This document shows positions 7,525 to 54,155 of a DNA stretch of 64,000 nucleotides, one piece after another. Each line of letters starts with the position of its first letter. Positions within the stretch are counted from its first letter, which is position 1. The translations under genes and the position numbers were made by a program. The stretch spans positions 21,327-85,326 of the forward strand of contig CAZKBP010000003.1 in assembly GCA_964551015.1 (NCBI GenBank), written 5' to 3'. The notes beneath the pieces are model-generated. The model was not told the origin of the DNA. It did not search any database and saw nothing but the letters and a program-made list of their open reading frames with translations. The DNA comes from an uncultured Cytophagaceae bacterium (GTDB lineage Bacteria > Bacteroidota > Bacteroidia > Cytophagales > Microscillaceae).

Positions 7525-7649
7525 GTAAAGAAACTTACAAAAGCCTGTAAATGTTATACTTATAGATAATCAAAGGAAAAAATAGACTCGCCAAATGGTA
7601 GAACCACGGCGTTTTCTGGCCATCTGGTGAGCATCAATCCATAGCAATT

Positions 7650-8292: not shown

Positions 8293-8349
8293 GTCCTATC
8301 TTTGTGAAAATTGCACGTACATTCATCAAAAAAATCAATCTTATATCTT

Positions 8350-8802: not shown

Positions 8803-8811
8803 CCTGATTAT

Positions 8812-8846
8812 GGGAAGAGCCGAATAGCTCTTCCCACTTTTATTTT
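8812..8846. terminator. Rho-independent terminator, bidirectional between convergent genes
   Basis: GGGAAGAGC-cgaata-GCTCTTCCC perfect 9-bp stem (8812-8835) followed by a T-rich run (acttttatttt). Confidence 0.6.
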
Positions 8847-9927
8847 ACAGTTTGCGAAGTCTTTGAAAATTCCATACCCGTTCTCGGTCGCTTAATATCA
8901 AGTAGTAAGTCCCTATTTCAAATTCTTCGGTAGATAACCGCAGCACCTGAGGCAAAGTATCGCTTGAACACGGGATACTTTTTACGATCCTTCCGTACTG
9001 ATCTCTTATTTCCAAATAAAACTTCTTCGGAGCAGGAGCATCCTTCAGCTTGACTTGAAGCTGATCTTGAAAAGGGTTTGGAAAAACTTGCCAAGCTAGT
9101 GTCTTCTCATTCGAGTCTTCGCTGAGATCGCTATCTACGATCGTGAAAGCAATTAACACGGAATCCCCTCTTGCTCCACTAGCTAATTTTTCTCCAAAAG
9201 CTTGCAAACTCAAAAGATAATGACCGGGAATGGCTTCCCAAGGGACAAACACACCTCGGGGCGAATCTCCAAACAAAGCATAAGGAAGGATACTTTCTAC
9301 TCTTTCTTCAATAATTTCTCCTTGTGAATTTTCTAGCCGAAAACTTACGCTATTGGCTTGTTTTACGAGAACCTCGAAGTTAATAGAGCGTCCCGTTTCG
9401 GCAATATCCAGCGTATCTCCCAACTCGATAGGACGGACTCTGGCATTGGCAAAGGCATTAATGAGCAAAATGCTATCGATACGCGGAGGAGGTAATACTC
9501 GGAACGATATTTCCAAGGGTAGTCCAGCCGTACCCCCTGCGTTTTGCTCCGTAAAAGCTTGTGCAGAAATGGTGTAATCACCAGGGGGTAGCACCCTGCC
9601 CGAAAATAGATCTCCTTGATTACCAAAGAGCGTGAAAGGAGCCAAGTTTTCAACGTTTCGAAACTCGAGAGGCCCTTCTAATTGCAATAAAACACTTCTC
9701 ACCTGACTCCCTTCCGTCTTTGCTTGGAAAGTAACAGCAGGAATCGAGGCAGCATCAAACTGGACGAGCATAGAATCTTGGAGCCTAGCAACTACCGAAT
9801 TTTGAAGCGTGTCAATGAGCAGAATATGATCAATGAGGAGTGAATCTTGAGCAAAAATGGCTTCCGAAAGTACAGAAAAATATAGCCAGAGTAATAAAAA
9901 TCTAGCAAAAAAATAGTTGGTGTACAT
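8845..9927 (-). CDS. Secreted protein with T9SS C-terminal sorting domain and two copies of a beta-sandwich repeat domain
   Basis: N-terminal signal peptide. C-terminal VFPNPFQDQLQVKL...YYLIL fits a Por/T9SS C-terminal domain. Internal repeat containing PF(T/A)LFG is also present in the upstream gene. Confidence 0.7.
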   Translation of the reverse strand: MYTNYFFARFLLLWLYFSVLSEAIFAQDSLLIDHILLIDTLQNSVVARLQDSMLVQFDAASIPAVTFQAKTEGSQVRSVLLQLEGPLEFRNVENLAPFTLFGNQGDLFSGRVLPPGDYTISAQAFTEQNAGGTAGLPLEISFRVLPPPRIDSILLINAFANARVRPIELGDTLDIAETGRSINFEVLVKQANSVSFRLENSQGEIIEERVESILPYALFGDSPRGVFVPWEAIPGHYLLSLQAFGEKLASGARGDSVLIAFTIVDSDLSEDSNEKTLAWQVFPNPFQDQLQVKLKDAPAPKKFYLEIRDQYGRIVKSIPCSSDTLPQVLRLSTEEFEIGTYYLILSDRERVWNFQRLRKL

Positions 9928-13000: not shown

Positions 13001-14094
13001 TGCATGTGGTCGATGAGCAAATTACCAGAGCTACCGTGTATTTCTATCACCCAAGGACGGGTCGGGACCCCTTCTTCATAAACCTCAATGGCCGAAACAA
13101 TCGCATTATTCACCACAGAAGTAAATTGAATATCTAAGGTATTATTTTGATCCAATTGAATATTTTCAAAAGTTTTTACCAAAGCGTGAGTGGCTCCCAC
13201 CTCCTGAAAAATATCCAAGCTATCTAAGACTCGTTCTCCTTCAATATCTACGTGGAAGATCCTTTGACCCGCCCGTCCTTCTATACCCTGAGGACTGCCA
13301 AAATAAGGTTCCATAAAATGTAGCTTGACTGTGTAAGCTGAGAAATTGGAACGAACGGGCAGATGATAAGCAAAACTACGACTGCCCTGAGCAACGTAGC
13401 GATAGGTTTGATAAATAATATCTGATTCAGTATTGGCAATCTCATAAGGCTTGGAGGCCGTCCAACCCCCCGTAAAATACTTTCCCTTTTTGTCATTTTC
13501 CCAATTGCCACTGTCTAAATCAGTAATATCATTGCCCCCCACATTGATGCGATAGAGGGAAGTCGGTTCATTAGATTCTATAAACTCGAATTGTACCTGA
13601 AAAACTGAGCCTGACAATCCTGATAGATGTGCTCCTGCAAAAGCCAAAACTTCTAAATTGTAAGTGCCACCCACGGCCGTTTTTCCCTTAAAATCCTGAG
13701 AAGAGGCTTCTCCAAAGAGGGTATAAGGATAAATATTCTCAGTTTGTTGATGAACCATAGCTCCATTCAAAGAGAAAGAAACACTTCCTACTTGCTGGGG
13801 GGAAATTTCTGCTATAATATTAAAACGAAATAATCTGTCTTTGGGCAATTTGATACGATCTCCATGACTAATTTCTTGCAAAATCGCATCTTGATCTGCA
13901 TCTACCAAGAGCAACCGAGTGACCTTCAAGCTGTCCTGAGTGCTAGGTGGAATAGGTGATGGCGGCCTCAAAGATAGAACCGATGTCGAGACAGGGCTAC
14001 CCGACGGAAATAAAGTAGTGGAGTAGCCTAGAAACCAAAACGTAGAAAATAAGGCTAGAAAACTAGCAAAAAAATACCTGGATGAAATTTTCAT
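10054..14094 (-). CDS. Very large secreted T9SS cargo protein with a malectin-like carbohydrate-binding domain and a glucose/sorbosone-dehydrogenase-like beta-propeller
   Basis: 1346 aa. Signal peptide. N-terminal repeat domain shared with 8845-9927. Malectin-like segment (NVGGNDITDLDSGNWENDK...YTVKLHFMEPYF). GSDH-like propeller segment (QQLYISQGGNTAMGRADAAWGNRSEKLLSAAILRLDL). C-terminal VYPNPFSHRLQVK... T9SS C-terminal domain. Confidence 0.65.
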   Translation of the reverse strand: MKISSRYFFASFLALFSTFWFLGYSTTLFPSGSPVSTSVLSLRPPSPIPPSTQDSLKVTRLLLVDADQDAILQEISHGDRIKLPKDRLFRFNIIAEISPQQVGSVSFSLNGAMVHQQTENIYPYTLFGEASSQDFKGKTAVGGTYNLEVLAFAGAHLSGLSGSVFQVQFEFIESNEPTSLYRINVGGNDITDLDSGNWENDKKGKYFTGGWTASKPYEIANTESDIIYQTYRYVAQGSRSFAYHLPVRSNFSAYTVKLHFMEPYFGSPQGIEGRAGQRIFHVDIEGERVLDSLDIFQEVGATHALVKTFENIQLDQNNTLDIQFTSVVNNAIVSAIEVYEEGVPTRPWVIEIHGSSGNLLIDHMQEVALDENFSTELFLLNSALDRSTVNNLNITLTNLSNHQIVDAQVNSTGGGDAITLVPCAPLESYTTYRLDFKSDITDLDKNAIVPYSLVFRTGAHFLSQSLQDIRFEKVALPQAAGKQYTSLCIGPDSKLYALTIDGLIKRFRIDKDGLLGEAETISSLRKHKRAPDFGTGPKMAVGLVFDPKATADNLIAWVSYSGHYTFEEGPEWDGNIARLSGKHLDSVEDMVIHLPRSLKDHLTSSMAFGPDQQLYISQGGNTAMGRADAAWGNRSEKLLSAAILRLDLQKLEASKDLPLDVKTAEGGSYDPSVEEAPLTLYATGIRNAYDLVWHSNGELYVPTNGSALGGNTPGFYPEDTLVENLINHLVSDTTLKIIPAVAKVTPTQSDWLYRIKAGRYYGHPNPRRGEYILNRGDLDVDNPAYDGIAADPNFDHDGLAFNFENNKSPNGAIEYQSKAFGGKLKGKLLVVRYSQNDDIIILEPDNRTHNIVKSFVDVTGEAGMRCFQDPLDLVEDPLTGNLYVSEFGGAKLTLLRVTEPLAPSRLVLENLDGFPAHDQLSFSRIQEPWFGSPSELGPNANHDEVTLRLHNQYPDMLHIDSLIITNPDYWQITNLDNISLSIPAGQALDIRLKFIARNPAGARDGLVKVLHEALKIYNSHEKQPKTVLLHGLWQKQGEGDREPHLQEIVDAFGLSTNIGFTDKKAGDDFTLAGDEIRTRFFTVADPKQAVRIMQLAAYHSCCDQFESIRYSIAGGPVKPLFAHLGRDAQSLLPRPQHLSNQAQAHRAATGYFRPDGFVDLVVNGNHTDFYKNYPHADQDTLAGRLALRVWPLKDHEGKIVEHHYLVAQDYVGPRANYDYNDNVYLISNVLPYEPVSSTNLAARAHFEEADENVAKPILDAETEVQVYPNPFSHRLQVKSQLSQSNSEIVEVKLLSLDGQYQRAMQTSAAHLEAWLNEQLRPLNPGVYILQIHSKGRTYTTKLIKNQ

Positions 14095-14930
14095 GACAAA
14101 AGAATTTAAAAATGTAAGACAAAAATAAACCTGTGAAATACCAAAAAGAATCTAACTTTTAGATAATAAGCTGACCTAGTGCTCCCGTGGTATCTGCTTA
14201 TTTTTTAAAACAGAACCAAAGATGTGAACACCATCCGAAGTAATGATTTTGAAAGAAAATGGCTATATTTGCAATCGCTACCTTCAATCAGTTGCCTGAT
14301 AGCAACCAATCCCTAACAGAGCTATGTAATTTATTTGTTCGTTTATCACATGTTATCGGTGCGTCCATACACGTGAATAGTACGACTTGGTACGGCGATC
14401 TCAAAGGGCCATAACGCTTGCATATTTTCGTGTCAGTTTTACCAGAATTGTCATAACATTTCCAGTGATAAAAACTGGGTGATTGATTATGATCACAAGA
14501 TTACTAGAATTATAGATAAAATCAAGAAAATGTTATAAACAGCAAACTATTGTTACGAACGGAGCTTCTTAGCAAGAAAAATCAGCAAATCATGAGAATT
14601 GGAGGCATATTTTCTCAAATGATCTGATTTTTGATAGAGTTGTTGAGAAACACTGTGCAATCTTTGTGAAAAAGCAAGATTTTCCAATTGATTTCCATGC
14701 TTCCTCAGTCTTAAAATCGTATTTTGAATTAAGAAACTGTCTAGCGTTTTAATTTGGTAGCGAAAAAGTTCTATTTTGAGTTCTTACGAAACCGGTTTTT
14801 GAAAGCATAGCCCCGGCTATGGTTGAAAAAATTGGTGAAGTCAGGTGCTGAAAGAGGACTTTTGCAGCCCCAAGGTAAACTTTAGACTTGCTTCTAAGTG
14901 AGCTTTTAAATATTACAACTCCAAAGAATT

Positions 14931-17900
14931 ATGCCTAAGACTTTAGCCTATTCTTACCTGAGTATTTTATGCTTATTTACCTGCATACCGACCGAGGCAA
15001 AAGTTTCAGGTAAAAAAGTGGTTCCAAACCTCAGTCAACTACAAGTAGACTCACTCTACCCAGCTCCTTTTTCTCTATACGCTCAGAGAGAAGATCCCAT
15101 TCAGATTTATTTCAATGAAGAACTGAACCCTGCGCTGGACTACCGACCCTATCTGCAAGTAGTAGGAAGTTTACAAGGCAATATAGCAGGAGAAATTCGT
15201 GTAGATACAAACCAACTCACGTTCCAGCCAAGTAGATTATTGAAATACGGGGAGAAAATAGAGGTATGCATTTACCCCGGCGTACTTTCTGCAAGTGCTA
15301 ATACCTTGGCCTTTGCCTATCATTATCAATTTCAGGTGCGCTCTTTGCCTATTGAGCCCAATTTGAGCAGAAGTACTCTGGTAGGAAACGAGGGGAAGGA
15401 CGCTGGAGAAGGCAAACACGTCTATACCGTGGATGTAGATCGAGATGGAGATATTGATATCATTTCGGCACACAGTAAAAATAATGACGATTTGGGTAAG
15501 ATTATCTGGTACGTCAATGAAGGTGAACTTAATTTTAGACCCAAGATCATTGATCCGCAGGCTATTGGTGTTAACCATTTGCAAGCCTGCGATTTAGATC
15601 AAGATGGCTATCTAGATATACTAGCTACGGTTCCTACCGAAGCGGATGATCGTATTGTTTGGTATCGCAATCAAAATAATCTAGACTTTAGCGAAGGCTT
15701 AGATATTAAGCCGCCTCCTGGAACCGTGCCTATCATGGGGATTAATTCTATACAAACTGGGGATTTAGATGGAGATCAAGATATAGATTTAGCCGTGTGT
15801 GTAGAGTTTAACGATATGGTTTTGTGGATCGAGAATCAAAACCAAAATCCCTCCACGGTAAATCCAAATCAATTCAAGTGGCACTTACTGACTGATTTGA
15901 CAGGCGGTGCCAAGGACGTAAGTATAGCAGATTTAGATCAGGATGGGCGTTTGGATATCGCAGTGGCTGCCAAAGGTGTTTCAACGAAAAACAGAAGCAA
16001 AAGCGATGTAAAAGTAGCTTGGTTCAAAAATCAGGGTGATAGGATTTTTGATACTCGTATCCTCATTCGAGGAGGGCGCTACGAAGCATTCTCCATTGTT
16101 CCTGCTGATTTGGATGGCGATGGCGAGGTTGATTTGATATTAGGAAGCCGTAGAGGTCTGGGAGCAGTAGGGAGGCTATCGTGGCTTCAAAGTTTGGGAG
16201 AAGGAAATTTCTCTGATGAGAAAATTATCACTGATTTTGGTTCTGGTATAAAATCCGTGAATGCTACGGACCTAGACGGGGATTTGGATCTAGATATTGC
16301 GTATGTCTCTCCTTTGAGGAGTGAACTCATTTGGTACGAGAATGAGGGTAATCTTGTCTTTAACCGAAGATTTGTATCTAATGTCAGTAAGATAGAAGCT
16401 ACACAAGCTACTGATGTAGATCAAGATGGATATGTGGACTTAGTTTCTATCTCTGGGACAACTGGGAATGGTAGAGTGTCTTTGAGTAAAAATGTTCCAG
16501 CCCTATTTATTAAGGAGGCGTTCGTAGGAGAGCATTCCGATCACGTTTTGAGAGAGACGAAACCTTGGGTCGTCTTTTCTGAAAAAATAGATGAAGCTTC
16601 CCTTGATCCTAAGGGCTTCTTTGTGAGAAGTAAAATCAGAGGGCGTCTCTCTGGAAACTACGTGATAAGAGAGGATACGGTTTTTTTTGAACCCGATAGC
16701 CCTTTTTTGGCGGGCGAACCTTGTACCCTGTATCTGAATCAAAATCTGCAATCGGTCAATGGAAAAACCCTGAGCCGTAATTTTGCCTTTGAATTTGTCA
16801 GTAGAGTAGAAGAAAACACCACCGAGTTCAGACCATTACGGATTGATTCTGCAGATGTATTAACCCCGGTTTCTCTGCAGATTACCGACCTTGACCTAGA
16901 TGAAAAGCTAGATATTATTGTCGCTAGGAGCGAAGGAGGAGAGAGCAAAGTAGATTTCTATCAACAAAAAACGGCCAGAAATTTTTCCAAATACAAACTA
17001 GCTCAAGACTTGCGCGGCGTAAACGACTTAGATATTCTAGATATCAAGATAAATGAACCCCCAAACTTGCTCGTAAGTGATGAAATTGACGCTGAAATTG
17101 CTTGCTACTATTGGCAAGATTTTCCTAGTTCGCCCCCGACTTTTGCTACCAAAAATGTCACAACATTTCAGCCAAGATTTGTCCTTTCCACGGATATGGA
17201 TGGAGACGGCGATACAGATATACTTGCGATCTTCCAAGAAGAAGACCGAACCAGAACCTCTTGGCTGGAAAATATCAATGGAACCTTTAGCGAGCAAGTC
17301 ATTGATGAGAATATATTGGAAGCAAGCGCACTCACTGTGGCAGATATGGACCGGGATGGAGACCAAGACGTGCTGATTGCCTATGCCGTTGCTAACCGAG
17401 TGACTTGGTACGAAAACGACGGGCTTCTCAACTTTGCCGAAAGAAATCTTGAACAAGAATTGGCAGTTGGTAAACCAACTTCGGTTCAAACTGCTGATTT
17501 AAATCAAGACGGATACATGGACATCCTGGTCGCTGCCGAAAAAGAAAACAGCTTTTTCTGGTTTCAAAACAAGGGCAACCATCAATTTACTAAAAGAGTT
17601 TTGGAAAGCTTCCCCGAAGATAGAGTGACCTCCAAAGTAACTGCCACAGATGTAGATGGTAATGGACATCTGGATATTGTCTACTCGATTCCCAATGAAA
17701 GTAAATTGATCTGGTACTCGAACTTAGGCGGAGGTCATTTTGAGAGCCAAGCACGCATTATCAGCGATACACAAACTGATCTCAAAGATTTCTTCCCCGT
17801 TGATCTAGACAATGATGGCGATATGGATGTAGTTACGGCTTTGGGCACTGAAAAACAATTGGTATGGCTGGAAAATAAACCACTCATGCGTATAATACAA

Positions 17901-18953
17901 ACGCAGCTTTCGCCTGCCCCGGGAGACAGCCTCATCTCAGATAGAGCTAATATTGAGCTGTTTTTTTCCGAAGAGATTGATCCAGCTACGGCTCGTTTTC
18001 CGAACATTATCGTACAAAATCAAAAGGGAGATACCTTGGCCGGAACTATCCAAGTTTCAGGTTATCAAGTGTCCTTCCAACCCGAATCTAATTTTACACC
18101 CGAAGATACCATCTACGTGACCATCACCATTGATGTGCTAAGTAAGCAAGCCAAATGTATAGCCAAAGATTACACTTATTTTTTTGTAATAGCCCCCGCC
18201 ATTTGCCTTGAGGCCAGCGAAAGCGGAGGTTGTGCCCCCTTCCCACTGGAAATAAATGATTGTAGCGCAGGGAGCTTAGAAATTAGGTACATCTATGAAT
18301 CTGGGCAGATTCCTACCTTAGAAAAAAAGCATACTTACAAGCAACCGGGCATTTACAACCCTCAGCAAATTATCTTCTACAGAGATGGCATTGACACTAT
18401 GATGCTTTCTAAGCCCATCGAGGTACTACCTGTTCCTGAGGAGTTGCGTATCTTGGTAGAAAACGAGCAATTAGCCATTTGCCCAGAGAGCAGACTTACG
18501 CTAAGGGTCAGCCCTGCCTATGATACCGAAACTTACGAATGGTTTCGAGAAGATGAGGATGTTGCTTTTGCCCAAGGACAAGAAATCCAGATCCAAACCG
18601 CGGGTAGCTACCGAGTGCAGGCAGAAAATATTTGTGGTCTTTTGGCATCGAAACCCTTGGTAATTCCCGAGCTGGAAGTGTTTTTGCCTAACCTCTTCAC
18701 GCCCAATGGAGATGGCAATAATGATGTATTCCGTCTGCGCTCTACGGATTTATCCCAATTAAAAAGCATAGAATTGATTGTCCTAGACCGTTATGGTAAT
18801 CAAGTTTATGCTACTAAGAACATACAAGAAGCCAGCGAAAAAGGCTGGGACGGTGGCTCACAGCCTTCTGGTAATTATACCTGGACTTTAAAAGCTGAAC
18901 TAGAAGGGTGCCAAGGCTACTCCGCCCAAGGTCGTTTGACTCTGTATCGCTGA
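14931..18953 (+). CDS. FG-GAP/VCBS-repeat (integrin-alpha-like propeller) secreted protein with a type-B T9SS sorting domain ('gliding-motility' C-terminal domain)
   Basis: 1340 aa. Signal peptide. About 14 Asp-rich FG-GAP/VCBS repeats (DVDRDGDIDIIS, DLDQDGYLDILA, DLDGDQDIDLAV, ...). Ig-like segments. C-terminal LPNLFTPNGDGNNDVFRLR is the hallmark of the type-B T9SS C-terminal domain. Confidence 0.75.
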   Translation: MPKTLAYSYLSILCLFTCIPTEAKVSGKKVVPNLSQLQVDSLYPAPFSLYAQREDPIQIYFNEELNPALDYRPYLQVVGSLQGNIAGEIRVDTNQLTFQPSRLLKYGEKIEVCIYPGVLSASANTLAFAYHYQFQVRSLPIEPNLSRSTLVGNEGKDAGEGKHVYTVDVDRDGDIDIISAHSKNNDDLGKIIWYVNEGELNFRPKIIDPQAIGVNHLQACDLDQDGYLDILATVPTEADDRIVWYRNQNNLDFSEGLDIKPPPGTVPIMGINSIQTGDLDGDQDIDLAVCVEFNDMVLWIENQNQNPSTVNPNQFKWHLLTDLTGGAKDVSIADLDQDGRLDIAVAAKGVSTKNRSKSDVKVAWFKNQGDRIFDTRILIRGGRYEAFSIVPADLDGDGEVDLILGSRRGLGAVGRLSWLQSLGEGNFSDEKIITDFGSGIKSVNATDLDGDLDLDIAYVSPLRSELIWYENEGNLVFNRRFVSNVSKIEATQATDVDQDGYVDLVSISGTTGNGRVSLSKNVPALFIKEAFVGEHSDHVLRETKPWVVFSEKIDEASLDPKGFFVRSKIRGRLSGNYVIREDTVFFEPDSPFLAGEPCTLYLNQNLQSVNGKTLSRNFAFEFVSRVEENTTEFRPLRIDSADVLTPVSLQITDLDLDEKLDIIVARSEGGESKVDFYQQKTARNFSKYKLAQDLRGVNDLDILDIKINEPPNLLVSDEIDAEIACYYWQDFPSSPPTFATKNVTTFQPRFVLSTDMDGDGDTDILAIFQEEDRTRTSWLENINGTFSEQVIDENILEASALTVADMDRDGDQDVLIAYAVANRVTWYENDGLLNFAERNLEQELAVGKPTSVQTADLNQDGYMDILVAAEKENSFFWFQNKGNHQFTKRVLESFPEDRVTSKVTATDVDGNGHLDIVYSIPNESKLIWYSNLGGGHFESQARIISDTQTDLKDFFPVDLDNDGDMDVVTALGTEKQLVWLENKPLMRIIQTQLSPAPGDSLISDRANIELFFSEEIDPATARFPNIIVQNQKGDTLAGTIQVSGYQVSFQPESNFTPEDTIYVTITIDVLSKQAKCIAKDYTYFFVIAPAICLEASESGGCAPFPLEINDCSAGSLEIRYIYESGQIPTLEKKHTYKQPGIYNPQQIIFYRDGIDTMMLSKPIEVLPVPEELRILVENEQLAICPESRLTLRVSPAYDTETYEWFREDEDVAFAQGQEIQIQTAGSYRVQAENICGLLASKPLVIPELEVFLPNLFTPNGDGNNDVFRLRSTDLSQLKSIELIVLDRYGNQVYATKNIQEASEKGWDGGSQPSGNYTWTLKAELEGCQGYSAQGRLTLYR

Positions 18954-18956: not shown

Positions 18957-20507
18957 ATGAAAAGTAGATTTATGAAAAAAGTCGCTTACTTCCTCCTCTT
19001 CATTCCTCATTTACTCTGGCCTCAATGGAGCAAAAGCCAAGATTTTGCTTTTTCACAATACTGGAATTCCCCATCCCTGACCAACCCTGCTGCCATTTTA
19101 CAAAGTTCAGCGGCACAAATACGCTTGAATTATCGTTACCAAGAGCTTCCTACCGGAGATTTTTATAGTACTGCGCTCCTTAGTGGCATTTATCCACTTT
19201 TGAATCAGCAAAAAGCCCAGCCCTGGGGAGCTATTTCACTTTCTTTACTCCGAGACAATCAGGGAGGGCTGAGCCAAACGAATGGAGTCTTAGCCGGAGC
19301 CGCTTATCGTATTTATTTTTTGAACAGTGAGCTAAACTTTGGTCTACAAGGTGGATTTTTCCAAAGACACATTGGAGACGATACCTACAGAACCGATAGC
19401 CAGTTTACGTCGAGTGGTTTTGATCCGAATTTGCCCATCCAAGAAAGTTTAGTGGGAATCAATACCTACTATGGCTTGGTGAGTACAGGTTTACAATGGA
19501 CACAGAGGGACGAAAAAGAAACTCCTCTCTGGTGGCTGGGAGTGGCTTGGCAGAATATAAATCGCCCTACGCTCAACGAGTTGGAAGGATTTACGGAATC
19601 CTTTCGCTTACCGAGTTATTTTACGGGAACAGGCGGTTTTCGACTTTGGTCGGATGCACGTTGGAGTATTAGTCCTCAATTTCGCTGGATCAATCGCTTG
19701 GATTTCAATTATTTACACTTGGGTGCAGACTTCAGTTATCACCTAGATGCGAATGCTGCTTTGAAAAAGCTTGGTGATCTGCACTTTGGTGCTTGGTATT
19801 ATACGAATCAAGCGGTTTTATTGGCCTTCACTTGGGATCAGCCTAAATTCCTGCTGACTTTTAGTTACGATGTAGCTCTGGGAGAAGAGAGCCGTGTTTG
19901 GTTGGGGAATGGTGCCTTGGAACTGACGCTGGGCTTAAAAATAGCACGCAGACCCGCTCGGAAAGAAGACAAAGATTTTTTTATAGAAGATGCCGTAGGA
20001 GCTATTCTCGAGCAAGGCAAAGCACTGGTCAAGCAAGAACCTGACTCAACGGTATCGATGAGCCCCTCCCCAGAAGATTCCATATCCAAGCCAATCAGAG
20101 ATACTATTCCTCCCGCAAAAGATACGAATAACTTAGCCCTGACCGAGACTGTAGCTGATGATTCGCTGGCAGAAGAAGAGGTGACCATTCGCTTGGCTGC
20201 CTTGGATTTTCCTGATCTGAAACTCAGATTTAGCAATGTTGAAAATCGCCTCACCCCCACCTCGCTAAAAAATATTGATGAACTTGCCCAATCCTTAGTC
20301 TACTACGAGGATACAGAAATTGAGATTGTTACCTATGAACCCGTGGAGGCTCTGATCCAAAATTTAGGTAAACGAATGAAAAATTACCTGATTGAGAGGG
20401 GAGTGAAGGGCAAAAATATTTTCTTAAAAATAGGCAACCGAGATCAACTGCCCGAAGCAGAGAAAACAAATACGGAATACACAATCATTGAAATCAAAAC
20501 AAAATAA
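18957..20507 (+). CDS. PorP/SprF-family T9SS outer-membrane protein with a C-terminal extension (possibly a degenerate OmpA-like domain)
   Basis: N-terminus ...SKSQDFAFSQYWNSPSLTNPAA matches the PorP/SprF signature (QDPQFSQY..NP..NPA). It is immediately downstream (4-nt gap) of a type-B C-terminal-domain cargo gene, the canonical arrangement. 516 aa is about 170 aa longer than typical. Confidence 0.65.
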   Translation: MKSRFMKKVAYFLLFIPHLLWPQWSKSQDFAFSQYWNSPSLTNPAAILQSSAAQIRLNYRYQELPTGDFYSTALLSGIYPLLNQQKAQPWGAISLSLLRDNQGGLSQTNGVLAGAAYRIYFLNSELNFGLQGGFFQRHIGDDTYRTDSQFTSSGFDPNLPIQESLVGINTYYGLVSTGLQWTQRDEKETPLWWLGVAWQNINRPTLNELEGFTESFRLPSYFTGTGGFRLWSDARWSISPQFRWINRLDFNYLHLGADFSYHLDANAALKKLGDLHFGAWYYTNQAVLLAFTWDQPKFLLTFSYDVALGEESRVWLGNGALELTLGLKIARRPARKEDKDFFIEDAVGAILEQGKALVKQEPDSTVSMSPSPEDSISKPIRDTIPPAKDTNNLALTETVADDSLAEEEVTIRLAALDFPDLKLRFSNVENRLTPTSLKNIDELAQSLVYYEDTEIEIVTYEPVEALIQNLGKRMKNYLIERGVKGKNIFLKIGNRDQLPEAEKTNTEYTIIEIKTK

Positions 20508-25957: not shown

Positions 25958-27241
25958 ATGGAAACCTACGCCAAAGCTTTAAGTTACGCCATTCCTGGTT
26001 TTATTCTCCTCATTATCATCGAGCACCTCGCCAGCCGACTGATGGGCAAGGAAATCAACCGAGGCTTTGACACCATTTCTAGCCTCAGCTCGGGCATGAC
26101 CAATACGCTCAAAAACTTGATGGGGCTTTCCGTGGTGATTCTTAGCTACGAGTGGATGGTCAGCCATTGGGCCTTGTTTGAAATCAAGTCTTCGGTGGCC
26201 TTGTATCTTCTGGCTTTTATCGGCTTGGATTTCGCGGGTTACTGGTCGCACCGCTTCAATCACGAGATCAATGTCTTTTGGAACCGCCACATTATCCACC
26301 ATAGTAGTGAGGAGTTTAACCTTTCTTGTGCCCTACGTCAAAATATCTCGGCGGTGATCGGTATTTATTTTTTCATGTACATCCCAATGGCCTTGATCGG
26401 GATTCCGGCTCAGGTCGTTGCTCTGGTGGCTCCCATCCACTTTTTTTCACAGTTTTGGTATCACACCCGTTTGATCAATCGCATGGGCTGGCTGGAACAT
26501 ATCATCGTTACGCCCTCTCATCACCGGGTGCACCACGCCATTAATCCCGAGTACATTGATAAGAATTACTCAGAAATCTTCATTGTCTGGGACAAGTGGT
26601 TTGGTACTTTCCAAGAGGAAAAGCCTGATATCCCACCCGTGTACGGGGTCAAAAAGCCCGTGCGCACCTGGAATCCTTTCTGGATTAATTTCATGCACCT
26701 CTGGATGATCGCGAGAGACGCTTGGTACACCCGAAGCTGGTGGGACAAAGTACGAGTCTGGTTCATGCCCACGGGCTGGCGACCCGAGGACGTGAAAAAA
26801 CGCTTCCCCGTAGAAATTACGGAAGCAAGTGAAGTCTACACCCGAGAAAAATACGCCACCGAGGCTACGCCGCTTTTCCTGGGCTGGTCTTGGTTTCAAT
26901 TGGTGCTGGCCAACGTGCTGATGTTTTACATGCTCGTGAACTTCGCGGAGTTTGCTTTTATTGACATTTTTCTTTATGCGGCTTTTTTGATGGTCTATGT
27001 CTTCGCCTACACCTCGGCCATGGACAAGCAACCTTGGGCTTGGGTAGCCGAACTTTGTAAAATGATCGCCGGATTTGCCTTGATTTATAAACTAGACGGC
27101 TGGTATGGTTTAGATCAATTCCTGCCCGGAGCCACTTGGGCAATGGCCGTGTATTTGGCCTTTTCCTTTGGGGCTTCGCTTTATTTTACCTTTGGAGAAA
27201 AGAATAAATCCGAGCAAGAAGAGGTTCTATTGTCTGCTTAA
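25958..27241 (+). CDS. Fatty acid hydroxylase / sterol desaturase superfamily membrane di-iron enzyme with an extra C-terminal membrane domain
   Basis: His boxes HRFNHEINVFWNRHIIHHS and HHRVHH. The first 250 aa are paralogous to the protein at 52938-53873. The C-terminal roughly 180 aa add 4-5 further TM helices. Confidence 0.7.
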   Translation: METYAKALSYAIPGFILLIIIEHLASRLMGKEINRGFDTISSLSSGMTNTLKNLMGLSVVILSYEWMVSHWALFEIKSSVALYLLAFIGLDFAGYWSHRFNHEINVFWNRHIIHHSSEEFNLSCALRQNISAVIGIYFFMYIPMALIGIPAQVVALVAPIHFFSQFWYHTRLINRMGWLEHIIVTPSHHRVHHAINPEYIDKNYSEIFIVWDKWFGTFQEEKPDIPPVYGVKKPVRTWNPFWINFMHLWMIARDAWYTRSWWDKVRVWFMPTGWRPEDVKKRFPVEITEASEVYTREKYATEATPLFLGWSWFQLVLANVLMFYMLVNFAEFAFIDIFLYAAFLMVYVFAYTSAMDKQPWAWVAELCKMIAGFALIYKLDGWYGLDQFLPGATWAMAVYLAFSFGASLYFTFGEKNKSEQEEVLLSA

Positions 27242-49540: not shown

Positions 49541-50048
49541 TATAGATCAGAATTCGAGCGAAACTACATAAAAAAAACCCTGCAAACAACAGAGGTTCGC
49601 AAGGTTTCCAAACCATATAACCATGAAAAACCTAACTTACTAATTCTTTATATCTTTTGAAAAGAATCTTCAGAATATCCGCCAAATTATCAATAAAAGA
49701 GAATATTTCAAAGACCTTTCGAAAATCCGAAATCTCGTAATTGAAACTAATAAGACTTTGTTGAATATCGCATAGATGGTTGCTTCCCCTCTGTCCTTCA
49801 TTTTCAGAAATGCTCTTCTGTATTTTTCGCTACTAAAGCGTTGAACAGTTAAATCTGCTCACAAAAATATAAATAAATTTGTATAGCTTGAAATGAATAA
49901 AAAAATAATCTATTCATTATAAAATAAGTGATATAAAAAATAAAAAAAGTAATAGTAAGTTCGTGTTAGAAACGCAAGAATGAGGGCTTACCTGAGAATT
50001 AACCAAGACGACTACCCATTCTCAAGCAAGTGAAGGGGGAGATTAACG

Positions 50049-50068
50049 GCTTATTTAGCGAAATAAGC
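50049..50068. promoter_or_regulatory. Perfect 20-bp palindrome, candidate operator about 100 bp upstream of the HTH-S24 repressor gene
   Basis: GCTTATTT-agcg-AAATAAGC, read directly from the sequence. Confidence 0.35.
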
Positions 50069-50119
50069 TGTAAAGATAAGCAGGTGCTATGAACTCAACC
50101 CCAAATATCTGCGTTTACA

Positions 50120-50141
50120 AATATCAAGAAATTGTGATATT
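50120..50141. promoter_or_regulatory. Second perfect inverted repeat, candidate operator overlapping the likely promoter of the repressor gene
   Basis: AATATCA-agaaattg-TGATATT, 24-45 bp upstream of the ATG at 50165. Confidence 0.35.
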
Positions 50142-50164
50142 ATCCAAACTTTACTCGCAAAACC

Positions 50165-50974
50165 ATGGCAGAGCGTGTCCTCAATGAAAATGAACGAATT
50201 GCATATGTCAGAGAGTTTTTAAGTCTATCACAAGCAGATTTTGCCCAAAGGATCGGAATCTCCCAAGGAGCTCTTTCTCAAATCGAGAACAGTAAAACGG
50301 GAATCTCTCTGGAGACCTTAGTAAAAATTACACGCCAGCTCAATGTGGATTGTAATTGGCTCGTACACGGAGTAGGCGAGGTCTTTTTGACAGAACAAAC
50401 TTCCCACCCAAAATTTTCAGAGGAATACATTATCCTCCCTGCCGACCAAAAAAGCAAAAAATTAATTCCCTTTGTCAAGCACGAGGCGAATGCTGGTTAT
50501 ATACGCTATTACCAAGATCAAAAATACATAGAAAAGCTGGACGCCTACCATATTCCTGGTTTCGAGCACGGTGACTACCGAATGTTTGAGGTCGTGGGAG
50601 ATAGCATGGTTCCTACCTTTTACCCAGGAGAGATTGTGATTAGCGAGTATCAAAAAGAAGAAGATATAGAAGATGGAAGTATTTGTATTATCATTACCCA
50701 AGAGGAGGTATTGGTCAAACGATACTATAAAGACCAAAAGGCTGAGTACCAGACCAAGTTGAAGAGTGATAATGCCAAATACAAAACTCAATATCTGCCC
50801 AAAGATCAAATGCTAGAGATATGGGTGGTCAAGGCTAAAATTACCTCCGTTTTTACGGAACTAACTGACCACTATTCCAAGCGGTTTCATAAATTGGAAT
50901 CAGAGATAGAGAAGCTCTGGCGAGAGTTCAAGGAAGTCCAGCGAGAACCAGACAACGACAAAAAGCAACATTAA
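50165..50974 (+). CDS. CI/LexA-like autocleavable repressor: XRE-family HTH + S24 peptidase domain
   Basis: N-terminal HTH (LSQADFAQRIGISQGALSQIENSKTGISLETLVKITRQL). C-terminal S24 catalytic Ser in GDSMVPTFYPGEIV and Lys in VKRYYK. A roughly 90-aa linker and tail are longer than in classic LexA. Confidence 0.75.
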   Translation: MAERVLNENERIAYVREFLSLSQADFAQRIGISQGALSQIENSKTGISLETLVKITRQLNVDCNWLVHGVGEVFLTEQTSHPKFSEEYIILPADQKSKKLIPFVKHEANAGYIRYYQDQKYIEKLDAYHIPGFEHGDYRMFEVVGDSMVPTFYPGEIVISEYQKEEDIEDGSICIIITQEEVLVKRYYKDQKAEYQTKLKSDNAKYKTQYLPKDQMLEIWVVKAKITSVFTELTDHYSKRFHKLESEIEKLWREFKEVQREPDNDKKQH

Positions 50975-51831
50975 TGGGCAATCCGCTGCTTTTGATTCTC
51001 CACTGACTTAGATTCAGATACATGCTTTTTGGCTTGCTCTACCAAGGTTTTAAAAATCAATCGTTGCTTAGCGAGGTGGATGAGAAATTCTGGATGCCAT
51101 TGTACACCCAGAACGAAATTTTGTTGTGTTGACTCGATCCCCTGGACTACCTGATTTTTTTCTTGGGCTACTACTTCCAAGCTTTGCCCAGTTTCTTTGA
51201 CAGCTTGATGATGGAGGGCATTGACCTGCAAATGCTCTACTTGTAAAGCCTCAGCGAGTTTGCTATCCGGCTTAATCCATACCTCTTTCACAGGAAAAAT
51301 GCTACGCGGATTGGGTTCTTCCAAATAAAAAACATTAATATCCTGATGTAAGGAACCCTTGAAGTATACATTGAGCAACTGGGCTCCTCTGCAAATGCCT
51401 AACATGGGAAGGCTTTTTTCAGAGGCTTCGTGAATCAGTTGTAGCTCCAGATGATCTCGTTCCTTATCTATTTGGTGGATGTTTTGAGTGCTTACACTCA
51501 GTAGCTTACGAATCAGAGAGATAAAGGGATAGGCTAATTGCCCGAAAAAACTACTGATTTTTTCCCAAAAGCTTTTCCGAGAGTCTTTGAGTGTTTGGTC
51601 AAGGTATTTTTGGATAAAATCTTTTTGGGTATAAGTATTGGGATCAACATCTGCCCCTCCACCGATAATTAAGCCATCCAAGTCCTCAATACTCTGAGGC
51701 TTGGCTGGCCGAATCCGAACAGGATTTCCTCCCACTAATCGTACCGACCAGGCGGTGAAAAGCCAGGCGGCAAATCCCCCTTTATCCGGCCCTGTGATAC
51801 CAATTTTAGGTTTGTATTGCTTTAATTTCAT
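50971..51831 (-). CDS. Peptidase C26 / class I glutamine-amidotransferase-like gamma-glutamyl hydrolase (PuuD-like)
   Basis: IGITGPD...LDGLIIGGGADVDPNTY...LPMLGICRGAQLLNV (catalytic Cys)...NALHHQAV...LGVQWHPEF (catalytic His). Overlaps the upstream gene by 26 nt, so they are in one operon. Confidence 0.75.
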   Translation of the reverse strand: MKLKQYKPKIGITGPDKGGFAAWLFTAWSVRLVGGNPVRIRPAKPQSIEDLDGLIIGGGADVDPNTYTQKDFIQKYLDQTLKDSRKSFWEKISSFFGQLAYPFISLIRKLLSVSTQNIHQIDKERDHLELQLIHEASEKSLPMLGICRGAQLLNVYFKGSLHQDINVFYLEEPNPRSIFPVKEVWIKPDSKLAEALQVEHLQVNALHHQAVKETGQSLEVVAQEKNQVVQGIESTQQNFVLGVQWHPEFLIHLAKQRLIFKTLVEQAKKHVSESKSVENQKQRIAH

Positions 51832-52828
51832 AATCTTCTTCTAACTTCTTGATCCAAGCATCAGATTTACTTTGCAGCAAAGAGGCATCCAATGCTAAGT
51901 ATTTTTGACTCATTTCCTGAATAAGCGTAGGTTCACTAGCCAACCGCTCTACCTCTAGCCAACGATTCCACTCCAAAGCCAGAGACCAATCGGCCTGACC
52001 CACCAGGCTATTGGGCAAGCGGTAATGAAGGGTAGGACGCTTGGATACCCATTTTACGCTAGAGAGCTGACTGACCCTTTCTTCCATCATCCAACTAAAT
52101 AAGGGATACAAATCCAGCGGACGGTTTCGATCAGGATTGTGGGCATGATATTCTTCTAGGAGTTTCTCAGGACTAGGGTTGTAATCAGGAGCCAACACGA
52201 GCTCCAGATAAGCTTCGGGAAAGGGCTGGATGTAAGTAGAAATACGACGAGTGAAATCAATTTCAGATATTTTGAAAAGCCACGGGTAGAGGAGAAGAAA
52301 GGCTCTGAGATAGCGGAGAACCGTTTGAGCATCTTGGAGAGGAATCTCTGGATTAATATGCATACCATACACATAACTGAGTGCTCCCTTGGTACCTGAG
52401 GCGTGTTTTTCGTGGAGAAAACGTCTCAAAGATTCAGCTTGCTCCATTTCCGTGAGGGGAAGAGGAGGTAGAGATAATTCATAAGGAATCACGAGTCCCG
52501 TAACGGTCGCCAGCCATTGGTCTAGAATCTCCTCCAAAGAGCGAGAGCCAATTTCCCATTCAGCCACCCGAATGCCCTGCTCCTCCAAAAATTGCTTGTA
52601 CATCTTTTCACTCAGCAAACGCGTATCTACTTCTACCGTGAAATCACCCCAAGCAGTATCCTTGACTTGGTAGCGGTAGGCATTATGACGATTACAAGTG
52701 CCTCCATATTGAGTCTGGATATATTGGGCAACTTCTTCCAAAGGAACATTACTAAACTCAATCTCATACCCAACTCGACGTACCTTCCCGTCTTCTTGAT
52801 AAATTTGATCAGGTAATATAAACTCCAT
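51806..52828 (-). CDS. Putative glutamine-synthetase-fold amidoligase (Amidoligase_2-like carboxylate-amine ligase)
   Basis: N-terminal RRVGYEIEF resembles the metal-binding E-x-E strand of GS-like amidoligases. It is genetically coupled (overlapping) to a C26 thiol peptidase, the neighbourhood described for the Amidoligase_2 family. Family membership is not verified. Confidence 0.45.
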   Translation of the reverse strand: MEFILPDQIYQEDGKVRRVGYEIEFSNVPLEEVAQYIQTQYGGTCNRHNAYRYQVKDTAWGDFTVEVDTRLLSEKMYKQFLEEQGIRVAEWEIGSRSLEEILDQWLATVTGLVIPYELSLPPLPLTEMEQAESLRRFLHEKHASGTKGALSYVYGMHINPEIPLQDAQTVLRYLRAFLLLYPWLFKISEIDFTRRISTYIQPFPEAYLELVLAPDYNPSPEKLLEEYHAHNPDRNRPLDLYPLFSWMMEERVSQLSSVKWVSKRPTLHYRLPNSLVGQADWSLALEWNRWLEVERLASEPTLIQEMSQKYLALDASLLQSKSDAWIKKLEEDYEIKAIQT

Positions 52829-52937
52829 ACTCTTTGAACAAGATTACCCGCCAATCGGTTGGGAGCCTCGAGCAAAGAAAAACCACTTACCGCATGGGAT
52901 AAGTGGTTTTCTATGAGAAAACAGATGCTTTTTATTT

Positions 52938-53873
52938 TTATTGAATAATCTCTTCGGGTTCTTCTGCTCGTTGTGTATTTTTCTCAGCTTCCAGACGAGC
53001 TTTGAGGTCTTGGAGCTTACTGGGGCGCACGAAAGTCTTTTGCCAAGCTTCCGAAAAAGACCGAGAGTTAAATATATCCTTCACAATGTCAATCCACTCG
53101 TGGAATACCAAGTAGGCAGGATTATAAGAGTTGACAGGGGTCGTAATGCCATAATTGGGAGTTTCTTCTTCTGGCTGAAAAGTACCAAACATCCGATCCC
53201 AAATCACAAAGGTAGAACCGTAATTCTTGTCCAAGTATTTTTCGTCCCGAGCGTGATGCACGCGGTGGTGGGAGGGAGTCACGAACACGTATTCAACTGG
53301 CGCAGGTAATTTGCGGATAAACTCCGTGTGCAACCAAAACTGGTATAAAACTTCTATTTGATGACAAACAAAGAAAACTACGGGGTGAAAACCCGCGAAA
53401 GCAACTGGAAGGAAAAAGATAATTTTCAATTGTTGTACCCAGGAAAGCCGAAAAGAAACGGAAAAATTATATTGCTCAGAAGAGTGATGTACCACGTGAG
53501 TTGCCCACCAAAAACGATTTTCGTGAGATACCCGATGCGAAACATATCGCCAGAAATCTAGCCACACCAAACACAAAATAAAAGACCACCAAGTAAAAGG
53601 AATAGACCAAGGTATTAGGTTGTAAACAACCAAAATGATTCCAAATAGCAAAGCCTTGCTCAGGGCACTGGTAACTAAATTACCCAGTCCTACACCAATC
53701 GAGGCTAGCAAATCTTTTCCTTCATAAACTTTTCGGTGTGTTTTGACACTCAAAATCCATTCTAATAATATCAAACCTAACATCACTGGGATCGCCAAAA
53801 GGATGATGTTGGATACCCCCGCTTCCTGAAGCATTACTTGGACTTTATCGAGGGTCAAAATTTCTTTGTTCAT
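52938..53873 (-). CDS. Fatty acid hydroxylase / sterol desaturase superfamily membrane di-iron enzyme (paralog of 25958-27241)
   Basis: His boxes HRVSHENRFWWATHVVHHSSEQYN and HHRVHHARD. Four TM helices. First gene of the three-gene minus-strand operon. Confidence 0.7.
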   Translation of the reverse strand: MNKEILTLDKVQVMLQEAGVSNIILLAIPVMLGLILLEWILSVKTHRKVYEGKDLLASIGVGLGNLVTSALSKALLFGIILVVYNLIPWSIPFTWWSFILCLVWLDFWRYVSHRVSHENRFWWATHVVHHSSEQYNFSVSFRLSWVQQLKIIFFLPVAFAGFHPVVFFVCHQIEVLYQFWLHTEFIRKLPAPVEYVFVTPSHHRVHHARDEKYLDKNYGSTFVIWDRMFGTFQPEEETPNYGITTPVNSYNPAYLVFHEWIDIVKDIFNSRSFSEAWQKTFVRPSKLQDLKARLEAEKNTQRAEEPEEIIQ

Positions 53874-54155
53874 TGTTTGTTGATTAAATGAATGTTTGAA
53901 TTTTTTTTAAACTACGAGCTACAAATATACCACGCGCTTAGGGATTTACAACATGAATTGAATGAATTCATGGTATAAGAATGTTACTCGTGAACAAAAC
54001 AAAGTAGTCTGAAGGGAGTTTGCGCTCCCTCAAACGAGATTCAAGAAAATAATAGTTGACAAAAAGCTTTTTATGAAAATTTAAGAAAAAGACTTATTTT
54101 CCAAGCGGATAAATTTAAACAAGATTTTAATCAATCATTCTAAAAAAAGACATTC

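Follow-up and report, generated by a model that had tools for sequence, protein, structure and literature searches.

The window is the whole stretch of DNA that was analysed, with a length of 64,000 nucleotides. The interval described here contains a repressor-like gene that converges on three genes of the opposite strand, and the features are listed in Table 1. The coordinates and strands of the four open reading frames agree exactly with the initial annotation of the window, and the families it had assigned were all matched in profile searches (HTH_3/S24, PF07722, PF12224 and PF04116).

Table 1. Features of the interval, with positions in the window.
Feature	Position	Strand	Basis or remark
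XRE-HTH and S24 repressor-like protein, 269 aa	50165..50974	+	Pfam: HTH_3, Peptidase_S24
Inverted repeat ATATCA-N8-TGATAT upstream of the repressor	50121..50140	+	Candidate autoregulatory operator
Peptidase_C26 / class-I GATase-fold thiol amidohydrolase, 286 aa	50971..51831	-	PF07722; second module gene
Amidoligase_2 protein, 340 aa, glutamine-synthetase-like fold	51806..52828	-	PF12224; first module gene
Terminator-like hairpin, hydroxylase stop to amidoligase start	52879..52910	-	Sequence and folding energy
FA_hydroxylase-superfamily membrane di-iron enzyme, 311 aa	52938..53873	-	PF04116; outside the module

The amidoligase matches PF12224 with 192.6 bits (cut-off 22, E-value 1.4e-56) over profile positions 2–244 of 245. 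This was the sole family matched in the Pfam profile search, and a PF00120 match is absent. The protein has a GS/GCL/PafA-like fold, i.e. the catalytic fold of glutamine synthetase and glutamate-cysteine ligase, and conserves acidic, His and Arg residues that are characteristic of this fold (E22/E24, E117, H157, E161, R264 and R270). It is a predicted ATP-dependent carboxylate-amine ligase. It is a divergent Cytophagales member, and the closest other amidoligase is at most 51% identical to it. The literature searched yielded no biochemical data on any PF12224 protein, so the acyl substrate and the amine discussed below are deduced by analogy.

The C26 protein matches PF07722 with 151.9 bits (cut-off 20.5, E-value 2.9e-44) and PF00117 (GATase) with a far lower score (56 bits, 5e-15). 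The residues of its catalytic triad, Cys147, His246 and Glu248, are each at least 95% conserved among 78 compared sequences. The same comparison revealed a subfamily-specific insert at residues ~68–115. The nearest solved structures are Lin1909, 7d4r and PuuD (6vtv). An assignment as PuuD equivalog was rejected (69 bits against the NCBIfam NF008471 cut-off of 266). Together with an amidoligase that is not of the PF00120 type, this score speaks against membership in the Puu pathway, with whose logic the initial annotation had compared the pair.

Neighborhoods were compared in 80 amidoligase-centred loci from Cytophagales, Balneolaceae, Bacteroidales, Bdellovibrionota, Desulfobacterota and Acidobacteria. 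A C26 gene lies immediately downstream of the amidoligase gene on the same strand in 77 of the 79 evaluable loci. Of the three loci in which no C26 gene was seen, one is truncated at the end of its contig, and in the other two the amidoligase stands alone. The C26 gene starts before the stop of the amidoligase gene in 75 of the 77 pairs (median -13 nt); in the window, the 3' end of the amidoligase gene overlaps the C26 start by 26 nt. Furthermore, three clusters at 50% identity consist of natural amidoligase-C26 fusion proteins. One of these clusters comprises 11 sequences, and a single one of them is present on 88 contigs. The fusion gene is monocistronic and surrounded by housekeeping genes. 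Neither clustering nor a Pfam census of the flanks (62 loci) revealed a third conserved neighbor of the pair, and the census found no equivalents of PuuB, PuuC, PuuP or PuuR and no PF00120-type PuuA nearby.

Pairing, overlap and fusion uphold the functional link that had been proposed between the two genes, and amidoligase and C26 protein form a self-contained module. The pair matches the neighborhood already described for PF12224, as the initial annotation had pointed out; the family is otherwise uncharacterised. Added here are the start/stop overlap in nearly all pairs, the existence of natural fusions, the insert of the C26 subfamily and a rare fusion to a VTT domain. The latter was observed in one deltaproteobacterial lineage, where a VTT/DedA membrane domain is fused to the amidoligase and the neighbors include lipid enzymes.

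Two types of chemistry have to be considered for such a module. Most likely, and by analogy with characterised enzymes, a gamma-glutamyl-type amide is formed on an amine and cleaved again. A ligase coupled or even fused to the opposite hydrolase appears futile unless it is regulated, and identical coupling would be expected of a synthetase with its glutaminase. The main rival explanation is a glutamine-dependent amidotransferase of two subunits or of one fused protein. Its C26 part would be the glutaminase, and the ammonia released would be channelled to the GS-fold synthetase for the amidation of an ATP-activated carboxylate other than glutamate. Pairing, coupling and fusion are hallmarks of synthetase/GATase systems such as MurT/GatD and the CTP and GMP synthases, and all three are found here in strict 1:1 pairing, in the translational coupling of nearly all pairs and in the natural fusions. 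The lack of need for a third gene and the recognizable PF00117 match fit as well, and the C26 insert could serve as a docking element. On the other hand, PF07722 scores far above PF00117 and the C26 protein has stand-alone enzymes as its closest relatives of known structure. To our knowledge, characterised PF07722 members are gamma-glutamyl-amide hydrolases and none is an ammonia-channelling subunit. The Pfam note on PF12224 reportedly also names AIG2-type cyclotransferases as alternative partners, which cleave gamma-glutamyl amides without supplying ammonia. Weighing both sides, the amidotransferase is considered rather unlikely.

A second alternative is a reversible tagging system comparable to PafA/Dop, in which glutamate or a small peptide would be ligated to protein side chains and removed again. 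Tagging systems typically consist of a ligase and a cognate enzyme for removal, and GS-like amidoligases were reportedly discussed by Iyer et al. in 2009 in the context of peptide and protein modification. No conserved small tag or target gene adjoins the pair, however, and the relatives of the C26 protein work on small gamma-glutamyl compounds, which makes protein tagging improbable.

The initial annotation had combined the module with the hydroxylase in an operon that hydroxylates or desaturates a lipid or hydrophobic metabolite and then amidates and de-amidates it, under control of an SOS-type self-cleaving repressor. The three genes are indeed co-directional and close, and the repressor gene converges on them. 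The hydroxylase matches PF04116 with 104 bits (cut-off 31, E-value 9e-30) and has the eight-histidine di-iron motif (H113xxxH117, H126xxHH and H203xxHH) and several TM-like segments. Its best NCBIfam match is the ornithine-lipid hydroxylase OlsE, which would suit a lipid substrate, but this assignment was rejected with 64 bits against the NF052566 cut-off of 475. The VTT/DedA-amidoligase fusion with its lipid-enzyme neighbors would also be in line with such an operon, as would the dioxygenase operons for aniline and 1-naphthylamine, where an oxygenase is encoded together with a GS-like ligase and a GAT-like hydrolase. In favor of an independent hydroxylase, a second FA_hydroxylase paralogue is located elsewhere in the window (25958–27241).

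Inspection of other genomes separated the hydroxylase from the pair. No FA_hydroxylase gene was found at any of the 80 amidoligase loci, even at E<0.1, and no S24 repressor gene lies at any of them; conversely, the pair is absent from all 65 hydroxylase-centred metagenome loci (41 informative). It is also missing beside the hydroxylase in all three closest relatives, where the hydroxylase gene is monocistronic with opposite-strand genes on either side. More than 7800 homologues of the hydroxylase exist, with 59–78% identity among the matches listed; the nearest relative is 78% identical among these matches, compared to 51% for the amidoligase. In relatives without the pair, the hydroxylase gene is syntenic with genes of the beta-lactamase family, RraA and p200. 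One such backbone (locus L087) reads p200, beta-lactamase, hydroxylase, DUF6452, DUF6048 and PyrB, with adh_short filling the slot. The hydroxylase gene belongs to the well-conserved gene backbone of Cytophagales and not to the module, and the block of repressor, C26 and amidoligase genes occupies a variable slot in this conserved backbone.

The junction between hydroxylase and amidoligase genes gives a similar picture. The minus-strand genes were said to overlap or abut. This holds for amidoligase and C26, but not for the hydroxylase, which is separated from the amidoligase by a gap of 109 nt. The 3' overlap of the repressor and C26 genes by 4 nt was confirmed. The gap contains a hairpin with a perfect 11-bp stem followed by a U-run (dG -17.2 kcal/mol, z -4.4), and equivalent hairpins lie directly 3' of the hydroxylase stop codon in three relatives (loci L086, L087 and L088). 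The hairpin probably acts as a terminator. The promoter-like signal in the ~50 nt from the hairpin to the amidoligase start is weak, and transcription from the hydroxylase gene may read through. The three-gene operon was rejected because of the gap with its terminator-like hairpin and the lack of co-conservation elsewhere. The initial annotation had itself made co-conservation of the trio the measure of its proposal, so the operon is refuted on its own terms.

The repressor matches HTH_3 (2e-13), Peptidase_S24 (2.9e-15) and the phrog_4 transcriptional repressor (1.4e-34). A110-G111, S147 (within GDSM) and K185 are invariant in its 14 homologues, in accordance with the autocleavage features noted initially. 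Domain layout and residues predict a self-cleaving protein of the CI/LexA-like S24 type, and the C-terminal tail forms an extra coiled coil. Canonical LexA was rejected (TIGR00498, 27.7 bits with the cut-off at 110.95; the N-terminus is of the XRE type and not PF01726). The stop codons of the repressor and C26 genes share the sequence TTAA. The 14 homologues are the only ones found and are at most 48% identical. Their genes are accompanied by two-component genes or by SurA/HU/Lon, contexts unrelated to the pair; no S24 or HTH gene adjoins the pair at other loci, and neither the repressor gene nor those of its relatives have SOS genes as neighbors.

The link to the SOS response that had been suggested finds no counterpart in the promoters. 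The CTAA-N5-TTAG operator has no match in the whole window. GGA-N5-TCC has 16 matches in the window (14.9 expected), and none of these lies in 49541–50164 or in other relevant promoters. The repressor was for this reason, and for the lack of adjoining SOS genes, not assigned to the non-canonical LexA of Bacteroidetes. The inverted repeat upstream of the repressor gene, which occurs in perfect form just once in the window, overlaps a sigma-70-like promoter (TTTACA-18-TATTAT) and may be an operator for autoregulation. No site resembling it precedes the amidoligase or hydroxylase genes. The repressor is not a conserved partner of the amidoligase-C26 module. With neither a shared operator nor a shared genomic context, an SOS-controlled hydroxylase-amidoligase-C26 operon is highly improbable.

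The amidoligase-C26 pair is the conserved unit, and hydroxylase and repressor lie beside it in this genome alone. The interval probably consists of three independent units that became neighbors by chance in one Cytophagales genome, the pair among them being a module that makes and cleaves gamma-glutamyl groups. A recently acquired functional link of the pair to the hydroxylase or the repressor, specific to this genome, is unlikely. The hydroxylase would be a stand-alone membrane di-iron gene with a separate, divergent promoter region and a terminator of its own. In the translationally coupled, self-contained module, the GS-fold amidoligase would activate a carboxylate with ATP and join it to an amine. 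This carboxylate would most likely be that in the gamma position of glutamate, which characterised ligases with this fold also use. The C26 hydrolase with its Cys-His-Glu triad would cleave the same kind of gamma-glutamyl amide, and the two proteins may form a physical complex. Between them, the two would control how much of the gamma-glutamyl group is present, or install it transiently and remove it again. The putatively self-cleaving HTH-S24 repressor, with its own promoter and palindrome, would meet the module in this genome only.

Several known systems resemble parts of the interval. The non-canonical LexA of Bacteroidetes (Sanchez-Osuna et al. 2021, PMC8565304) has a CI-like HTH together with an S24 domain. 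The repressor shares with it the XRE/CI-type HTH, the S24 residues Ala-Gly/Ser/Lys, the chromosomal location and the phylum, but it has neither published operator in its own promoter and carries the additional C-terminal coiled coil. Cytophagaceae homologues could not be assigned in that study (PMC8565304).

For the module, the proposed chemistry resembles that of the AtdA1/AtdA2 and NpaA1/NpaA2 pairs, in which a GS-like gamma-glutamyl-arylamide synthetase (AtdA1/NpaA1) is accompanied by a GAT-like hydrolase (AtdA2/NpaA2) and a Rieske oxygenase (PMC11335346; Takeo et al. 2013). These systems provide the precedent for a neighboring GAT-like hydrolase that reverses the reaction of a GS-like ligase (PMC11335346). 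Their ligase is a full-length PF00120 homologue of GS type I, whereas that of the window belongs to PF12224. Likewise, their oxygenase is a soluble Rieske enzyme co-conserved in the operon, in contrast to the membrane di-iron hydroxylase, which is not co-conserved. The Puu pathway of E. coli also uses a GS-fold ligase (PuuA, gamma-glutamylputrescine synthetase) and a C26 hydrolase (PuuD, gamma-glutamyl-GABA hydrolase). The window pair differs in a C26 score below the PuuD cut-off, in an amidoligase without PF00120 and in the absence of adjoining PuuB, PuuC, PuuP and PuuR; unlike the Puu pathway, it appears self-sufficient.

Glutathionylspermidine synthetase/amidase (GspSA) unites opposite ligase and thiol amidase activities in one protein. 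Its coupling of making and breaking as a regulated homeostatic device parallels the natural amidoligase-C26 fusions, although its folds (ATP-grasp synthetase and CHAP amidase) are unrelated and its substrate is known. The closest counterpart is the neighborhood of Amidoligase_2 and a GAT-like thiol peptidase that Iyer, Abhiman, Burroughs and Aravind are said to have predicted in 2009. A thiol-peptidase neighborhood is reportedly also given in the Pfam family note on PF12224. The window pair shares both families, their adjacency and their orientation with this neighborhood and differs from it in nothing essential.

Four open reading frames make up the region, and all of them were found where the initial annotation had placed them (see table). 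The hydroxylase carries the complete eight-histidine di-iron signature (H113xxxH, H126xxHH and H203xxHH) and several hydrophobic segments. The C26 protein, a Peptidase_C26 member, retains Cys147, His246 and Glu248. REP, an XRE-HTH/S24 repressor, retains the Ala110-Gly111 site, Ser147 in GDSM and Lys185, which are invariant across its 14 detectable homologues. As far as the sequences indicate, these three proteins look intact. The amidoligase has a GS fold, and acidic, His and Arg residues typical of that fold are conserved in it. The three minus-strand genes had been described as overlapping or abutting. This holds for the amidoligase and C26 genes, which share 26 nt, but the hydroxylase gene lies 109 nt away from the amidoligase gene. 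The convergent stop codons of the REP and C26 genes overlap by 4 nt (TTAA).

Coordinates of features in the window and, where a locus is named, in loci of relatives
Feature	Position	Strand	Description
REP	50165-50974	+	HTH_3 + Peptidase_S24
C26 protein, 286 aa	50971-51831	-	Peptidase_C26 2.9e-44; GATase weaker
Amidoligase, 340 aa	51806-52828	-	Amidoligase_2 (PF12224) 1.4e-56
Hydroxylase, 311 aa	52938-53873	-	FA_hydroxylase 9e-30
Hairpin in the hydroxylase-amidoligase gap	52879-52910		11-bp perfect stem + U-run
Palindrome	53946-53978		TTACAACATGAATT-N5-AATTCATGGTATAA
Region upstream of REP	49541-50164		624 nt, AT-rich; inverted repeats, e.g. 50043-50074
Second FA_hydroxylase, 427 aa	25958-27241	+	PF04116 1e-26
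T9SS cargo gene	10054-14094	-	about 1,340 aa
ORF-poor gap	14095-14930		836 nt
T9SS cargo gene	14931-18953	+	about 1,340 aa
PorP/SprF gene	18957-20507		
Gamma-glutamyltranspeptidase (L013, L017, L021, L024, L026, L027, L029, L031, L036, L038-L040, L043-L045, L047)	about 6100-7900	-	
VTT/DedA-amidoligase fusion (L093)	5001-7450		Logan SRR28004141; also Deltaproteobacteria MAG MBO6937868.1
Fragmentary ORFs (L082)	7039-9100		JGI contig

Relatives of the amidoligase were collected by scanning contigs of one genome per species with an amidoligase alignment. This gave 195 relatives, and 80 loci were retained. An alignment was needed as query; the same scan with the single protein gave no matches. The 80 loci span Cytophagales, Balneolaceae, Bacteroidales, Bdellovibrionota, Desulfobacterota and Acidobacteria. 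Searches with the window proteins (tblastn) show C26 as the next gene downstream, in the same orientation, in 77 of them; in 75 of these 77 the two genes overlap, C26 beginning within the 3' end of the amidoligase gene (median overlap 13 nt). Among the three loci without C26, one is cut by a contig end and two, from Pontibacter species, have unrelated genes at this position. At the locus L082 only short, fragmentary ORFs are found downstream of the amidoligase, where C26 is expected; they may represent a degraded C26 gene or a frameshifted assembly. The conserved unit is the amidoligase gene followed by the C26 gene.

No third conserved partner emerged from clustering all flanking ORFs of the amidoligase loci. 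A Pfam scan of the genes directly next to the pair on either side in 62 loci likewise returned no third partner and neither an FA_hydroxylase nor an S24 family. The commonest neighbours of the pair differ by lineage, with amidohydrolases and a Dabb protein in Balneolaceae and a DNA ligase in Rufibacter. In 16 loci (Pontibacter, Telluribacter and Botryobacter) the pair has a divergent gamma-glutamyltranspeptidase gene upstream, which keeps this position while the outer flanks vary; the copies are 72-79% identical to the one of the reference locus L013. It was dropped as a general third partner, being restricted to one clade and missing from the window. As a weak hint, this neighbour fits a gamma-glutamyl theme.

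The initial annotation had counted the hydroxylase as a new component of the amidoligase/C26 module. Neither the hydroxylase nor REP gave a match within 8 kb in any of the 80 amidoligase loci, even at E<0.1. Conversely, none of 65 hydroxylase loci from a metagenome scan (41 with at least 2 kb downstream) contains amidoligase, C26 or REP. The comparison across genomes that had been suggested for the three genes was thus run from both sides, and they are not co-conserved. More than 7,800 homologues of the hydroxylase are detectable, with identities of 59-78% among the matches listed; for the amidoligase, identity to the nearest relative is only 51%.

Gene orders were compared around the closest hydroxylase relatives, with orthology confirmed by identity. 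In the window the order is PyrB, DUF6048, DUF6452, REP, C26, amidoligase, hydroxylase, RraA, h90, a beta-lactamase-family gene, p153 and p200 (h90, p153 and p200 being further genes of the window). The corresponding orders are beta-lactamase-family, RraA and hydroxylase in L086; beta-lactamase-family, hydroxylase, adh_short, DUF6452, DUF6048, GAF and PyrB in L087; and beta-lactamase-family, hydroxylase and unrelated genes in L088. Judged by these orders, the hydroxylase is part of a conserved backbone, and the REP-C26-amidoligase block fills a variable slot in it. The window holds a second FA_hydroxylase paralogue, 34% identical to the first, with the same eight-histidine motif and an additional C-terminal hydrophobic region; such genes are therefore common here. 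An identification of the hydroxylase as OlsE was rejected (64 bits against a cut-off of 475), and a PDB sequence search with it gave no matches.

The 109-nt gap contains the hairpin AAAACCACTTA-N10-TAAGTGGTTTT followed by TCTTTG (dG -17.2 kcal/mol, z -4.4 against shuffles). It escaped the pattern scanner because the loop limit of that scan is 8 nt. Each of the three nearest hydroxylase orthologues identified (identity 70-78%) has an equally placed A-tract/hairpin/U-tract directly 3' of its stop codon (-20 to -24 kcal/mol, z -5 to -6.7), and in L087 both genes flanking the hydroxylase are on the opposite strand. Together, these features argue that the hydroxylase gene forms a transcription unit of its own in this lineage. 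Read-through from the hydroxylase past the hairpin may occur and is compatible with the sequence; the promoter-like signal in the ~50 nt preceding the amidoligase start is weak. On the other side of the hydroxylase, a palindrome lies within the 282-nt divergent hydroxylase/RraA region and may be an operator for either gene.

An SOS link through the repressor had also been proposed. The non-canonical LexA proteins that run the SOS response in Bacteroidetes consist of a CI-type HTH and an S24 domain, bind CTAA-N5-TTAG or GGA-N5-TCC and autoregulate, and REP shares their layout (PMC8565304). CTAA-N5-TTAG does not occur in the whole window. GGA-N5-TCC is present at chance frequency (16 matches, 14.9 expected) and is absent from the intergenic regions upstream of REP, amidoligase and hydroxylase. 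The REP promoter region has ATATCA-N8-TGATAT overlapping a TTTACA-18-TATTAT site; nothing resembling this palindrome is found upstream of the amidoligase or the hydroxylase. Relatives of REP are at most 48% identical; their genes are flanked by response regulators and histidine kinases, or lie beside SurA, HU and Lon. None adjoins an amidoligase pair or SOS genes, and a search of their promoters revealed no common palindrome. With LexA operators missing from the relevant promoters and the REP relatives in unrelated contexts, the proposed link is not supported; no sequence evidence was found for control of the amidoligase-C26 module by REP. Speculatively, the convergent REP/C26 overlap could cause transcriptional interference in this genome.

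The REP family is small (14 detectable members; proteins P0242-P0254, loci L090 and L091). An invariant CNWL motif follows the HTH in these proteins, and their C-terminal tail is a coiled coil. In two of the three contexts looked at, the gene has a divergent response regulator on one side and a convergent sensor kinase or response regulator on the other. The AT-rich region upstream of REP has several inverted repeats, no ORF of at least 80 aa and no Rfam match.

Beyond these genes the window holds the usual content of a Cytophagales chromosome (cytochrome oxidase genes, T9SS cargo, PorP/SprF, polyphosphate kinase, GrpE/DnaJ, PyrB and amylase). GC content is flat, tRNA and Rfam scans of the window gave no matches, and no mobile-element signature surrounds the REP-C26-amidoligase block. 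The two T9SS cargo genes are divergent, separated by an ORF-poor gap and followed by the PorP/SprF gene; one product has Malectin, Big_5 and Por_Secre_tail domains and the other FG-GAP, Big_5 and CHU_C. The proposed joining of a membrane hydroxylase to the amidoligase/C26 pair under an SOS-type repressor is a positional coincidence and should not be treated as a new pathway.

An exhaustive profile search of 1.84 billion representatives (50% identity) found only 873 amidoligase family members at E<=1e-3; the module is rare and scattered across several phyla. In three of the 873, one polypeptide combines an N-terminal Amidoligase_2 domain with a C-terminal Peptidase_C26 domain, and one of these fusion clusters comprises 11 member sequences, one of them on 88 contigs. 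One natural fusion form, P0403, is 594 aa long. Surrounded by dCTP deaminase, urocanase and TsaBDE genes, the fused gene is monocistronic, so that the module apparently needs no adjacent partner and appears self-sufficient. Opposite activities can be fused, as in glutathionylspermidine synthetase/amidase. A defence-system or phage reading was dropped, since PADLOC and PHROGs returned nothing for amidoligase or hydroxylase and a tblastn comparison of the amidoligase with 50,697 phage records was equally negative.

In one deltaproteobacterial lineage a VTT/DedA membrane domain is fused to the amidoligase N-terminus, and C26 still follows. Genes for a LysR regulator, a YegS-type lipid kinase, an MscS channel and a CDP-alcohol phosphatidyltransferase lie nearby, which hints, as a single case, at a membrane-associated or lipid-linked substrate.

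Characterised GS-fold ligases (GS, GCL, PuuA, GmaS, AtdA1/NpaA1, PafA) activate the gamma-carboxylate of glutamate, and characterised C26 enzymes cleave gamma-glutamyl amides. By analogy, the amidoligase would form the gamma-glutamyl amide of some amine and C26, an amidohydrolase with Cys, His and Glu as catalytic residues and with Lin1909, 7d4r and PuuD as its nearest solved relatives, would cleave that same amide. This simplest reading has close to an even chance of being correct. Pupylation-like protein tagging by the two enzymes is a minor and very improbable rival. The main rival, a glutamine-dependent amidotransferase, would account for the fusions and for the obligatory coupling more naturally still than a ligase/hydrolase pair; it requires a C26-type glutaminase subunit and a GS-fold enzyme with a non-glutamate acyl substrate, and we know of no precedent for either. 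It is rather unlikely overall. Slightly less probable still is its specific form, a new class of amidotransferase that includes the single-chain fusions and in which a C26-type GATase domain feeds a minimal GS-fold synthetase. The GATase domain would supply ammonia or transfer the glutamine amide nitrogen, and the synthetase would amidate a non-glutamate carboxylate; its target might be membrane-associated, given the VTT/DedA fusion and lipid-gene neighbours in one lineage. Such a class is less likely than the gamma-glutamyl ligase/hydrolase pair. An hhalign comparison of the amidoligase profile with E. coli GlnA, aimed at the residues of the glutamate and ammonium sites, gave a probability of 0.1% and no usable alignment. 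A PDB sequence search with the profile gave no matches.

Cassette-type C26 proteins have a common insert of ~45-50 residues (about 68-115), which separates the GGxDxxPxxY motif from the nucleophile elbow and includes R108 (conservation at least 95%). The match of the C26 Pfam profile to the protein is split into two stretches. Alignments of PuuD-type structures begin only near residue 116, and neither PuuD- nor Lin1909-type enzymes aligned across the insert, which may be a docking surface or lid.

The amidoligase-C26 neighbourhood has reportedly been described before for PF12224 by comparative genomics and in a Pfam note. The initial annotation had pointed this out, in agreement with the present loci. 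The searched literature holds only annotation mentions and no experimental characterisation of PF12224 or the amidoligase; the argolaphos paper concerns ATP-grasp and GNAT enzymes. The pair in the window is a divergent member of this known, experimentally uncharacterised kind. Tight coupling and fusions make the module an easy target for biochemistry; as an orphan enzyme system it is attractive and readily tested. Its solution would give PF12224 a function, which is useful but incremental.

Membership in the Puu pathway, whose logic had been invoked for the pair, is not borne out: the C26 protein scores 69 bits with the PuuD model (cut-off 266). The Puu pathway has a PF00120 ligase as well as PuuB and PuuC, whereas the window module has no such ligase and no equivalents of the latter two. 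The aniline and 1-naphthylamine systems have a GS-like synthetase and, after it, a GAT-like hydrolase, which undoes the synthetase reaction and keeps the intermediate at a safe level, a direct precedent for the amidoligase making and C26 breaking the same amide (PMC11335346).
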